A stretch of 64,000 bases of DNA from Minisyncoccota bacterium (GCA_041664265.1 JBAYLD010000001.1:134358-198357), one strand, 5' to 3'; shown: positions 4,813 through 7,585, counted from the first letter of the stretch. Numbers and translations: made by a program. The notes: generated by a model from the sequence alone, not told the origin.

Positions 4813-5082
4813 CTATGGAGAAATCCTCTGTATCGGGTCGAGGCTGAAGGTGCCAAGCGCGATATTGATGATACCGTACGCGCCGAAGATGATCACCAGG
4901 CCGATGACGCCCCAAAAGATGGCGAGGCGGCCTTCTTCCCTCTTCTTTGGGTCTCCCGCGTGCCAGACGAACTCAAATGTGCCCCAGAGGAGCACAACAA
5001 ATGCCGCCGCCGAGAGGAGCAGAATAATCGGGTTGATAATCTGCGCGACGACCTTGTCGAGAAATTGGTTGAGGACGGACAT
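4813..5082 (-). CDS. VirB2/TrbC-pilin-like small membrane protein, paralog 6 (no signal peptide seen)
   Basis: 89 aa. Shares the family motif INPIILLLSAAAFVVLLWG...KKREEGRLAIFWGVIGLVIIFGAYGIINI. Confidence 0.45.
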   Translation of the reverse strand: MSVLNQFLDKVVAQIINPIILLLSAAAFVVLLWGTFEFVWHAGDPKKREEGRLAIFWGVIGLVIIFGAYGIINIALGTFSLDPIQRISP

Positions 5083-5086
5083 TTAC

Positions 5087-5464
5087 CTAGCCGCCGATCT
5101 GGACGCCTGCCGAGGGAGTGCCGCCCGCAGGGCCGGCATTGTTGCCGAAGTTGATGGTGCCCGTGAGGATGTTCACCAAGCCCCAGACCGAGACCATCAC
5201 GAAGAATCCAATAAGACCCCAGAGCATGAGATTCTTGCCCTTATCCTTTACTGCAGAGTCCTGCGCGCCCAAAATAAACGCCTGAAACGCGCCCCAAAGG
5301 AAGACGATGAAGGCGATAGCGAAGAGGACCGGAACAATGATGTTATTGATCGTGTCGATGATGAACGAGCCGACATCTGCGACGTCGTTGATCTGGGCGA
5401 ACGCGACCAAGGGCAGGGCGAGCGCGGAGAGTGTTGCTGAAGTAAGGGAGAGGATTTTTTTCAT
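5087..5464 (-). CDS. VirB2/TrbC-pilin-like small membrane protein, paralog 5
   Basis: 125 aa. Signal peptide MKKILSLTSATLSALALPLVAFA, then IIVPVLFAIAFIVFLWGAF, a charged loop, then LWGLIGFFVMVSVWGLVNIL. Confidence 0.5.
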   Translation of the reverse strand: MKKILSLTSATLSALALPLVAFAQINDVADVGSFIIDTINNIIVPVLFAIAFIVFLWGAFQAFILGAQDSAVKDKGKNLMLWGLIGFFVMVSVWGLVNILTGTINFGNNAGPAGGTPSAGVQIGG

Positions 5465-5549
5465 AAAATAAGTAATGGTTAACAGGGTAATTGTAGCTTG
5501 TCTGCCCCGCCGGTCAATATGTTTCCGCGCAGTTTGTGGATAGCCTTAA

Positions 5550-6461
5550 TTAATAGTTATCGTTGTAATAATCGTATTCTGGCGGGGTGTTGTAATTGTC
5601 ATTGTAATAATCGTAACCGCTGTCGTTCATGGCGGCGGTGCAGGTGTAACTGACCGGATCGCAATCCAGATTAGTGAAGCAGTCTGTCTTGGTCTCACAA
5701 GCCGAGCCGACAGACCCCGGGAGAGGATCGTTGCTTGTGCTGAAGTCGAGATTGCCAAAATCGCTGTCCCACTGGCTCGCGCTCGTCCTATTGCCGCGAC
5801 TGTCGATACACTGGCCAGCTAGAATATCGCACTCGCCACCACCCGTTGCCCTGTTCGCTTCAAGACAGGCTTCACACCAGGCAGGTGTGGCACCAGGATT
5901 GACGTTAGCGCCTCCCAAATTCTCATATCTGCTATGGGCCTGCTCGTATGCCTGGAGGGCCGTTTGGCATTGTGGGCTTGACCCGGCATAACGCGCCGCA
6001 CAGTCTTCATACGCGCTCTGCGTCTGCTGAAGAACTGTGAACGCCTGATTCTGCGCCGGCGTGCCACCGCTCGAGCTGTAGTAGTACCCGCCAGTGCGGC
6101 TACCGCCGTAGGTGCCAGAACTCGGGAAATATGAGTTCCCCGCCGCGGGCTTACCTGTGCCGCCGCCGATGGTCGGGAAGAGCGGTACATTCGTGGCAGT
6201 GAGGTTCAACGTACCCATAAAGATCTGTACAATGCCCCAGACCGAGAAGAGAACGACGAAGCCGATAATGCCGTAGAGGGCGAACCAGCGCCCGGTCTCT
6301 TGCGCCTTCGGGTCATCAGCGCCTTTGATGAAATAGGTATAGACACCCCAGAGGAAGACGATAAAGGCAATCGAGATAAGTATCGGGACGAGAATATTAT
6401 TGATCAGCCCGATGATGCTGTCAGAGTAACCTTGGATATAGGTGGTGTTGATACCGTTCAT
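5550..6461 (-). CDS. VirB2/TrbC-pilin-like N-domain fused to a Gly/Tyr/Ser-rich linker and a Cys-rich C-terminal domain
   Basis: 303 aa. N-terminus INNILVPILISIAFIVFLWG...WFALYGIIGFVVLFSVWGIVQIF. C-terminus has 12 Cys and terminal YDYYNDNY repeats. Confidence 0.5.
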   Translation of the reverse strand: MNGINTTYIQGYSDSIIGLINNILVPILISIAFIVFLWGVYTYFIKGADDPKAQETGRWFALYGIIGFVVLFSVWGIVQIFMGTLNLTATNVPLFPTIGGGTGKPAAGNSYFPSSGTYGGSRTGGYYYSSSGGTPAQNQAFTVLQQTQSAYEDCAARYAGSSPQCQTALQAYEQAHSRYENLGGANVNPGATPAWCEACLEANRATGGGECDILAGQCIDSRGNRTSASQWDSDFGNLDFSTSNDPLPGSVGSACETKTDCFTNLDCDPVSYTCTAAMNDSGYDYYNDNYNTPPEYDYYNDNY

Positions 6462-6476
6462 AGCTCAGGGATAGGG

Positions 6477-6887
6477 TTAAAACGATTTCGGGAGCGGAGG
6501 CGCCGAGAAGCCCGCGAGACCGAAGGTGTTTGCGACCACATTCACGAGCCCCCAGATGGAGATCATAACCACAAATGCGATGATGCCCCAGAGGATAAGC
6601 TTGTGACCTTTCGCGACTTCTCCCGGCTCGCCGCTAGAGAATATATATGACTTAGCGATGCCGTAGAGGAAGACGATAAAGGAGATAGCGAAGAGGACCG
6701 GCACCAAGACAAGGTTGATGATAGAGAGAACAAGGTTCCCGAGCCAGCAGATGTAGACGTCACAGCCAGCGATAGCTGGCCCACCGAGGAAGTCGTCTGC
6801 AAAAACGAGCGAAGGAGCGAGAAACGCGGCGGCGAATACCGCAGCTCGGGCGATTGGTTTAAGCTTCATATGAGTGCAGTATGACAT
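6477..6887 (-). CDS. VirB2/TrbC-pilin-like small membrane protein, paralog 3
   Basis: 136 aa. Signal peptide, then INLVLVPVLFAISFIVFLYG...KLILWGIIAFVVMISIWGLVNVV. Confidence 0.5.
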   Translation of the reverse strand: MSYCTHMKLKPIARAAVFAAAFLAPSLVFADDFLGGPAIAGCDVYICWLGNLVLSIINLVLVPVLFAISFIVFLYGIAKSYIFSSGEPGEVAKGHKLILWGIIAFVVMISIWGLVNVVANTFGLAGFSAPPLPKSF

Positions 6888-6888
6888 G

Positions 6889-7161
6889 TTATGCGGCAGG
6901 CGCGATGCCGAGCGTGGATAACAAGAGATTTACCAGCCCCCAGACCGAGAAGAACACCGCCATCCCGAGAGCTCCCCAGAGGATGAAGTCACGGCCCTCT
7001 GCAATCTTCTTCGTATCGCCGTCGTTATTAAGGAAGAAGTACCGCACGACACCCCAAACAAACGCGGCGAAGATGAACGCGCCAATCGTCGGCACGACGA
7101 TGGTGTTGATGACGCCGATTATGCCGGTCGAGCCGTCGCCAATGAATTGGGCGAAGGTCAT
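6889..7161 (-). CDS. VirB2/TrbC-pilin-like small membrane protein, paralog 2
   Basis: 90 aa. INTIVVPTIGAFIFAAFVWG...DFILWGALGMAVFFSVWGLVNLL. Confidence 0.45.
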   Translation of the reverse strand: MTFAQFIGDGSTGIIGVINTIVVPTIGAFIFAAFVWGVVRYFFLNNDGDTKKIAEGRDFILWGALGMAVFFSVWGLVNLLLSTLGIAPAA

Positions 7162-7162
7162 G

Positions 7163-7585
7163 CTAGTTGCCGGTAGCGATCGCCTGCACGGTTGCCGAGA
7201 TGCCGAGCGCTATTGCCTGTGCGCCGAGCAGTATCAAGGCGCCCACAACCGTCCACAGTAGCGCTCGGCGCGCTTCTTCTATCTTCCCCGGAACGCCTCT
7301 CGCGGCGACGAACAGGTAGCCGATATACACCAATATCAGGATGATCGCGATAGTGCCGATACGGACGACCAACTGCAGGATCTTGTCGAGCAGACCAAAG
7401 AGGCCGACTCCCTCACCGAGCGGGTTGACGAGAGTGACGACAGTACCGCGGGAACCGCTCGTATTTCGTACGCTTGTCTGGGTCTGTGATGATTGGTCCC
7501 GAACAGATGTTTGCGGCGCGGCGAGCACCACAGGAGCGAGCATGAAAAACATAAGGAGAACGGCGGTAGCAAAACGCATAGTCAT
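7163..7585 (-). CDS. VirB2/TrbC-family pilin-like protein, most canonical member and first of the array
   Basis: 140 aa. Signal peptide, LVNPLGEGVGLFGLLDKILQLVVRIGTIAIILILVYIGYLFVAARG, a short loop, then LLWTVVGALILLGAQAIALG. Topology is signal peptide plus two hydrophobic helices. Confidence 0.5.
   Translation of the reverse strand: MTMRFATAVLLMFFMLAPVVLAAPQTSVRDQSSQTQTSVRNTSGSRGTVVTLVNPLGEGVGLFGLLDKILQLVVRIGTIAIILILVYIGYLFVAARGVPGKIEEARRALLWTVVGALILLGAQAIALGISATVQAIATGN

Follow-up and report, generated by a model that had tools for sequence, protein, structure and literature searches.

A 64,000-nucleotide stretch of DNA from a Minisyncoccota bacterium (GCA_041664265.1, JBAYLD010000001.1:134358-198357), hereafter the window, carries six consecutive minus-strand genes for small membrane proteins of the pilin family of type IV secretion systems (T4SSs). 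The source is a metagenome-assembled genome of 'Candidatus Paceibacterota' (Patescibacteria) related to Kaiserbacteria; an earlier note, made from the sequence alone, had correctly supposed a small-genome bacterium. All six proteins passed the cut-off of a curated family model, and the six genes recur in related genomes as six separately conserved orthologous groups in a fixed order, directly downstream of genes for a solute-binding protein (SBP) and a methyltransferase. The last two pilin genes have a conserved promoter of their own. In our view, the locus probably encodes the pilin module for a T4SS that does not serve conjugation. The role of the essential T4SS 'pilins' of Patescibacteria is a question that this locus constrains in testable ways.

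Six pilin-like proteins

The pilin genes were numbered positions 1 to 6 in transcription order, as follows.

7163-7585, minus strand: position 1, 140 aa; signal peptide, Ser/Thr/Gln-rich variable segment, and TrbC-like two-helix core
6889-7161, minus strand: position 2, 90 aa; without signal peptide
6477-6887, minus strand: position 3, 136 aa; signal peptide ending ...SLVFA/DD, hydrophobic N-terminal segment at residues 12-31
5550-6461, minus strand: position 4, 303 aa; two-helix core and long C-terminal extension
5087-5464, minus strand: position 5, 125 aa; signal peptide ending ...LVAFA/QI
4813-5082, minus strand: position 6, 89 aa; without signal peptide

The open reading frame (ORF) listing recovered exactly the six consecutive genes (89-303 aa) that had been described from the sequence, and the proposed family core, two hydrophobic helices with a short charged loop, could be aligned across all six. 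In this alignment, the other members were 28-36% identical to the 89-aa member over the shared core. A family profile built from the six matched only those six among the window ORFs of at least 40 aa (E 8e-15 to 3e-34). When compared with Pfam T4SS_pilin (PF18895; gathering score 26.6 bits, profile length 71 positions), positions 1 to 6 scored 27.7, 32.2, 30.1, 31.4, 34.8, and 39.8 bits, none below the gathering score, with E values of 5e-10 to 3e-6 and 55-69 of the 71 profile positions covered. The assignment to VirB2/TrbC-type T4SS pilins, made by eye in the earlier note, was thus borne out for six of six proteins, and the pass of a curated Pfam model together with the six-only profile matches excludes chance.

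The proposed check with Pfam TrbC/VirB2 (PF04956; gathering score 27.9 bits) came out differently. No window protein reached the cut-off; the best score was 22.4 bits for position 1, and the 89-aa protein scored 13.0. Position 1 alone approached this model, in agreement with the view that the most upstream member is the most canonical. Among position-1 orthologues, 30 of 30 matched T4SS_pilin and 26 of 30 matched TrbC at E<=0.01 (best 1.6e-8), which supports homology at the superfamily level and not PF04956 membership of the window proteins. The best NCBIfam match for all six was NF045849 (E 2e-9 to 5e-3, 16.6-36.9 bits), with its cut-off of 40 not reached. The 303-aa protein is named 'pilin' by NCBI.

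Two helices were found in all six proteins, a basic loop was resolved in five, and a signal-peptide-like N-terminus was found in three. Of the signal peptides claimed for the whole family, signal-peptide-like segments were thus recovered in the 140-, 136-, and 125-aa proteins but not in the 90-, 303-, and 89-aa proteins, which have only 6-15 residues ahead of helix 1. The interhelix loop contained 2-4 K/R in five of the proteins (the loop of the 90-aa member was not resolved by the scan), and the flanks contained 0-1 K/R each; this distribution indicates that the loop is cytoplasmic and that both termini are outside. Two other identities were rejected. Type IV pilus pilins were ruled out because none of the six has a class III prepilin leader (G/FTLxE); no type IV pilus assembly genes were found in the window, where the PilM_2 match is FtsA. 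Permease fragments were ruled out because all six genes are intact, and 65 genomes conserve each of them individually.

The array in related genomes

The SBP was 58-76% identical in 80 related species-level genomes, and pilin-like ORFs in the SBP-bearing loci were found only directly downstream of the SBP gene and on the same strand. Exactly six pilin genes were present in 65 non-redundant loci. Three loci had seven, each through one duplication (of position 3, 4, or 5) that left the order intact. Loci with fewer than six kept the 1-2-3-4 order in all cases, and most of them visibly stop at a contig edge. Core identity at the same position across genomes was 65, 63, 68, 56, 79, and 72% for positions 1 to 6, compared to 19-45% between different positions (mean within an array, approximately 33%). 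The best cross-genome match was to the same position in 384 of 390 cases. These data indicate six ancient, individually constrained orthologous groups and not a recently amplified or freely varying cassette; recent tandem amplification was ruled out by the orthology analysis. The cassette for surface variation that the earlier note had envisaged was not supported for the cores, which are six old, separately conserved groups; only the extensions vary. Length varied only in the pre-core segment of position 1 (35-198 aa) and the tail of position 4 (7-375 aa). By a crude rule applied to the 65 orthologues, the N-terminus was signal-peptide-like in 64 of 65 at position 1, in about half to two-thirds at positions 3-5, and never at positions 2 and 6.

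The genes that precede the array, and the terminator that follows it, are listed here.

8893-9432, minus strand: S-adenosylmethionine-dependent methyltransferase, class I, 179 aa; first gene of the operon; Methyltransf_11/25/31 and Ubie_methyltran matches
7582-8889, minus strand: SBP, sugar/MalE-type, 435 aa; SBP_bac_8 78.9 bits, SBP_bac_1 62.2 bits
4754-4782: hairpin terminator, 13-bp stem with 8 G-C pairs, then a plus-strand T-run; common to the array and the convergent gene 4288-4737

The ORF and Pfam scan confirmed that the SBP and methyltransferase genes lie directly upstream of the array on its strand. The SBP stop codon overlaps the position 1 start, and the intergenic spacing from the SBP through position 6 is -4, 1, 1, 15, 85, and 4 nt. 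The true start of the methyltransferase was set by alignment to relatives (72-75% identity); the longer ORF is an over-extension into an IS200-like insertion. In 77 of 82 SBP-bearing loci, essentially all those with enough upstream sequence, the methyltransferase gene adjoins the SBP gene; gyrA lies further upstream in nearly all loci whose flank is long enough. The SBP has a single N-terminal hydrophobic anchor (residues 3-30) and is of the membrane-anchored, extracellular type, with sugar-binding proteins 4r9f, 5ci5, and 1elj as distant profile matches. Its AlphaFold model, made with 14 close homologues, had a pLDDT of 37 and was unusable. As had been remarked from the sequence, this SBP lacks an ABC permease or ATPase partner: none was found among the approximately 50 Pfam-scanned ORFs of the window or within 10 kb in relatives. 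The sole ABC/FtsX pair seen was a MacB-type system approximately 5 kb past the far end of the window.

The only long gap in the array, before position 5, contains a promoter and a DnaA-box-like site.

5465-5549, minus strand: internal promoter region; -35 TTGACC at 5517-5512, -10 TACAAT at 5495-5490, ATG at 5464
5543-5535, minus strand: DnaA-box-like 9-mer CTATCCACA; 8 of 9 positions match the DnaA-box consensus, TTATNCACA

The promoter scan gave a sigma-70-type promoter in this 85-nt gap (TTGACC-N16-TACAAT) with 10 of 12 consensus matches. Of 65 related loci, 61 have the layout [N-T-A/G-T-C-C-A/C-C-A]-N17/18-TTGAC(C/T)-N16-TACAAT-N26-ATG, and the box is retained in all 65, including the four without the full layout. 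In 59 of the 61 full-layout loci, a spacing of 17-18 nt separates the box from the -35 element downstream of it, and in eight of the 61 the box is the perfect TTATCCACA. Over 1.04 Mb of loci, the 8-mer excess was concentrated in the gap before position 5. No conserved box or promoter was found upstream of the methyltransferase in relatives; compared to that region, the box is specific to the gap before position 5. In two distant loci (L089 and L090), a box precedes or lies within pilin-gene promoters. The conserved promoter of their own and the highest conservation of positions 5 and 6 suggest that these two genes are a separately, and probably strongly, expressed unit, and make their products candidates for abundant subunits. 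Position 5, the most conserved member at 79% core identity, is the candidate major subunit as judged from these sequence comparisons, and the promoter of positions 5 and 6 is possibly controlled by DnaA.

DnaA-box-like 9-mers in intergenic promoter regions of the window were seen at 5535-5543, at 10298-10306 (TTATCCACA, just past the gyrA terminator), and at 14008-14016 (TTATCCACA, upstream of the S1 gene). In the window as a whole, 4 exact copies of the 8-mer TATCCACA were counted versus 0.96 expected.

Position 4 is the longest of the six proteins. Its AlphaFold model (38-sequence alignment, mean pLDDT 71) comprised the following parts.

Residues 6-84: transmembrane hairpin; pLDDT about 90
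Residues 96-127: disordered Gly/Tyr-rich linker; pLDDT below 50
Residues 135-181: second helical hairpin, extracellular, with two Cys; pLDDT about 90
Residues 250-278: compact Cys module; pLDDT 93
C-terminal tail: disordered, with Tyr/Asp/Asn repeats; pLDDT below 50

The Gly/Tyr-rich linker and the YDYYNDNY repeat (two copies) that had been reported for this protein were found, but 10 Cys were counted and not 12. The model and the topology predict that the C-terminal part is extracellular and disulfide-rich, as would be expected if it were surface-exposed, which had been suggested. The module at residues 250-278 resembles inhibitor-cystine-knot toxins (spider knottins; Foldseek probability 0.9, target TM-score up to 0.77, E>1). 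The structure of the helical hairpin is too simple for a pilin fold to be recognized from it. In position 4 orthologues, the tail is exchanged for one or several DUF7107/EB-like modules, knottin-like modules, or beta-flower repeats, and some position-1 orthologues have the same kind of extension. Because of the topology, these extension modules are placed outside the cell.

A profile search of 1.84 billion cluster representatives returned 20,269 clusters of the family at E<=1e-3, and the top matches included proteins in which 2, 3, 5, or 7 pilin modules are fused in one chain. Four of the distant pilin homologues were traced to the loci of their lineages (L089-L092). The gyrA-methyltransferase-SBP-array context was present in these lineages (L092 was too short upstream of the methyltransferase), and the two distant SBPs that were compared were 31% and 30% identical to that of the window. 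In L089, four-base overlaps link the methyltransferase, the SBP, and the first pilin, and position 6 has a clear orthologue. The arrays of the distant lineages have 7 to 14 modules. This layout indicates that the link to the SBP and methyltransferase is deep in Paceibacteria, and that a count of six is particular to the Kaiserbacteria-like clade.

Fusions of 2-7 two-helix modules occur in other Paceibacterota inside SBP-linked arrays (P0189, P0190, P0289, and P0312). Fusion loci are L089 10001-11011 and L090 10001-11821, and one example is 606 aa long with seven modules. In addition, four nearly identical pilin genes of 106 aa occur in L090, and each is preceded by a separate intergenic region in which the sequence resembles a promoter or terminator.

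Neighbouring genes and other features of the window

The absence of VirB4, VirB6, and VirD4 from the window, as previously reported, was confirmed among the approximately 50 ORFs scanned with Pfam. VirB4 was also never found within 10 kb in those loci of relatives whose neighbouring genes were listed. The remaining genes of the window are housekeeping genes (GyrA, FtsA, FtsZ, LepA, MurJ, a class I tRNA synthetase, RNR, RecG, FtsH, and TsaD). The array is flanked upstream by the SBP, methyltransferase, and gyrA genes and downstream by two convergent plus-strand genes, and this arrangement of neighbours was likewise found in L003-L005 and L089-L092. The nearer convergent gene (4288-4737) encodes a membrane protein of 149 aa that has an IcmG/DotF-like match, though a very weak one (E 0.022), and the farther one (3239-4291) encodes a 350-aa SPFH/Band_7-like protein just under the Pfam cut-off; part of the clade conserves both. 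An IS200/IS605-like element (9440-10280) with a Y1_Tnp ORF (9544-10248, plus strand) and hairpins near both ends is inserted between gyrA and the methyltransferase operon. Relatives have small ORFs only at this place.

Several features elsewhere in the window were also recorded. A diversity-generating retroelement is present at 48634-51120 (minus strand), with a reverse transcriptase (RVT_1) at 48634-49749, a template repeat at approximately 50037-50145, and a variable repeat at approximately 50437-50545, located at the 3' end of a 234-aa ORF (50416-51120) with no Pfam match; 15 of 16 mismatches between the repeats fall on template adenines. A second Y1_Tnp ORF is at 47497-48192. The first 3,200 nucleotides (1-3200), together with L086 10896-20495 past the window start, form a mobile or defence island beside tRNA-Lys and tRNA-Leu that replaces the Asp/Glu racemase neighbourhood of relatives. 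Its genes include HTH_3, HTH_36, a RuvC-family ORF and an adjacent 175-aa ORF (no Pfam match), a 1149-aa protein (no Pfam match), an IS3-type integrase, Dam, and a CBASS-type E2 and JAB. Structural RNA genes were found for RNase P RNA (class A; 48251-48594), tmRNA (62582-62982), and tRNA-Ile with anticodon UAU (60546-60620), an uncommon bacterial way to read AUA. The longest-ORF ftsH (60634-62646, called product 641 aa) overlaps the tmRNA, so the true ftsH start must be further downstream.

Interpretation and comparison with known systems

The explanation that we favor, and consider probable, is a chromosomal, non-conjugative T4SS whose pilin module consists of six obligatory paralogues. The data above establish the family membership, topology, orthology, operon structure, and promoter; dependence on a T4SS, filament formation, and separate subunit roles are what we infer. 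The six proteins would be inserted into the membrane by Sec/YidC, and three would then lose their signal peptide. A T4SS driven by VirB4, with its genes elsewhere in the genome, would take them up, and they would form a heteromeric extracellular filament or conduit toward the host cell. Positions 5 and 6 would be the abundant structural subunits and positions 1-4 low-abundance adaptor or tip subunits, with position 4, and sometimes position 1, displaying variable host-contact modules, knottin-like in the case of position 4. We also infer a part in the system for the SBP, which together with the methyltransferase would act with the pilin module. VirB4 is listed in six of seven published genomes with this locus (Table S1, PMC12102498).

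Several points weigh against this explanation. A survey of the window plus another 20 kb of source contig past both window ends (83 kb) found no T4SS machinery genes. When the 303-aa model was searched with Foldseek in the PDB, no match had E<1 and no solved pilin was matched, and a profile of the six proteins did not find a pilin in the PDB either. The 2-7-module fusions fit a side-by-side assembly in the membrane at least as well as a filament of single subunits. The division into major and minor roles draws only on promoter structure and conservation. To our knowledge, a pilus made of PF18895 proteins has never been observed, and the T4SSs of monoderms are normally without one.

It is unlikely that the methyltransferase and SBP are unrelated to the pilins and have been kept next to them by the very stable gene order of small genomes. 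Synteny of the housekeeping flanks (S1, Lactamase_B_3, gyrA, IF-2, and ClpB) extends over the same evolutionary range, the methyltransferase belongs to the generic class I enzymes, and the binding protein has no transporter partner, as the earlier note pointed out. However, the methyltransferase, SBP, and first pilin are joined by four-base overlaps or few-base gaps in close relatives and in lineages at 30% identity alike. In addition, no conserved promoter was found between the SBP and position 1, unlike before position 5.

Alternatively, the six proteins (12 helices) could be a fixed heteromeric channel, dependent on the SBP, that imports a host-derived sugar or lipid head-group, either independently of a T4SS or as the inward conduit of one; we regard this as rather unlikely. 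The SBP and array genes overlap, or nearly so, even at 30-31% SBP identity, and the binding protein has no ABC permease or ATPase partner nearby. The fixed six in fixed order suggest a defined stoichiometry, the fusions imply that modules are adjacent, and a 2025 review has speculated on the pilus as a conduit for uptake from the host (PMC12857230). In contrast, the family is homologous to T4SS pilins, and the array of Southlakia epibionticum ML1 lies inside a T4SS cluster with no SBP among those cluster entries that could be seen in the annotation tables. The separate strong promoter of positions 5 and 6 argues against equal stoichiometry, and the adhesin-like Cys modules of position 4 would be unexpected on a permease. 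The synteny of the whole neighbourhood (S1, gyrA, and others) also means that the linkage may partly be conserved genome backbone.

A more general proposal would be that the T4SS pilin-like proteins of Paceibacteria are the membrane and filament part of an uptake conduit and not an export or adhesion organelle, with a dedicated, co-translated sugar-type SBP, possibly a modifying methyltransferase, and expression of the major subunits tied to the replication cycle through a DnaA box. We hold this to be improbable. If true, it would be the first SBP-coupled importer derived from type IV secretion, and it would provide a concrete mechanism by which auxotrophic epibionts draw metabolites from the host.

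Antigenic or host-range variation has been proposed for the VirB2 paralogues of Bartonella and Anaplasma. That the six paralogues are interchangeable major pilins for such variation is very unlikely: mean identity within the array is near the 25% mean of published arrays (PMC12102498), the extensions of positions 1 and 4 differ greatly between genomes, and L090 has its four near-identical genes with their own intergenic regions, but in 65 genomes same-position identity (56-79%) exceeds cross-position identity (19-45%) with number and order fixed, the members differ systematically in signal peptide and length, and no repeats or recombination substrates were seen.

Taken together, these data indicate that the pilins of a large Paceibacteria clade are a fixed six-part set and not interchangeable variants, that they are linked to an SBP and a methyltransferase over deep evolutionary distance, and that variable host-facing modules are confined to two members. 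The multi-module fusions show which modules are likely to be neighbours. The array itself is an expected feature of such genomes, and published arrays (PMC12102498, PMC10633639) place it, as an array, among a described kind. The fixed six-part set, the deep coupling to the SBP and methyltransferase, the DnaA-box-like promoter, and the module fusions appear to be undescribed in the literature searched.

Arrays of this kind were surveyed in 3,035 Patescibacteria genomes with PF18895 and PF04956, which yielded 441 arrays of 2-11 VirB2-like genes with a mean identity of 25% (PMC12102498). In the same work (Quinonero-Coronel et al. 2025), 1,135 of 1,948 assemblies had a pilin gene near virB4, and in about 40% of assemblies pilins were located apart from virB4. 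An array was defined there as at least two PF18895/PF04956 genes (E<0.001, >50% coverage) in tandem or one gene apart; by this definition the window contains one, with six consecutive matches and gaps of 1-85 nt. The published arrays were most abundant in Microgenomatia and Saccharimonadia, whereas the window array is in Paceibacteria. That paper (PMC12102498) mentions neither solute-binding proteins nor gyrA, and its sole mention of a methyltransferase is KsgA near virB4. Host-range variation, which it offers as a possible reading of the paralogues, does not agree with the fixed orthologous groups that we found. Of the signal-peptide genes with unknown function in cultured Paceibacteria, those for T4SS pilins were among the most strongly expressed (PMC10936435).

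Southlakia epibionticum ML1 has six PF18895 genes (SEML1_0014-0019) within an essential T4SS cluster (Wang et al. 2023, PMC10633639), and the 2025 review describes these six as 'structurally conserved, sequence-divergent VirB2-like pilins' (PMC12857230). Both arrays are six consecutive, sequence-divergent PF18895 proteins of a Patescibacterium without a relaxase or conjugation context, and the Southlakia array is essential for epibiotic growth in that organism. However, the Southlakia array lies beside VirB4, PrgI, and VirB6-like genes, a placement not found here; the window array is near gyrA, behind the methyltransferase and SBP, with no T4SS gene for at least 37 kb on either side on the source contig.

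Among other T4SS proteins, the nearest in NCBIfam are Mbov_0395 and MMCAP2_0565 (NF045849) of Mycoplasma integrative and conjugative elements. These are 80-residue two-helix proteins of a monoderm MPF-FATA-type T4SS, each from a single gene of a mobile conjugative element, in contrast to the chromosomal six-gene set described here. The VirB2/TrbC/TraA pilins of diderm conjugative and effector T4SSs (PF04956) are likewise small and have a pair of hydrophobic helices, a short basic loop (resolved in five of the six proteins here), and termini that both lie outside, as predicted for the array proteins; a signal peptide is present in some members, and in the array a signal-peptide-like N-terminus is present in three. 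In contrast, the window proteins fall below the TrbC cut-off and have no sequence or fold match to solved pilins, the host is a monoderm, there are six obligatory paralogues versus one major pilin, and no VirB machinery is adjacent. Type IV pili and type II secretion pseudopili differ further, with no homology, no prepilin leader in the six, and no PilB, PilC, or PilD nearby. The resemblance to them is a functional analogy: a highly conserved subunit with its own promoter accompanies distinct, co-transcribed subunits of low abundance, and among these is one with an adhesive domain.

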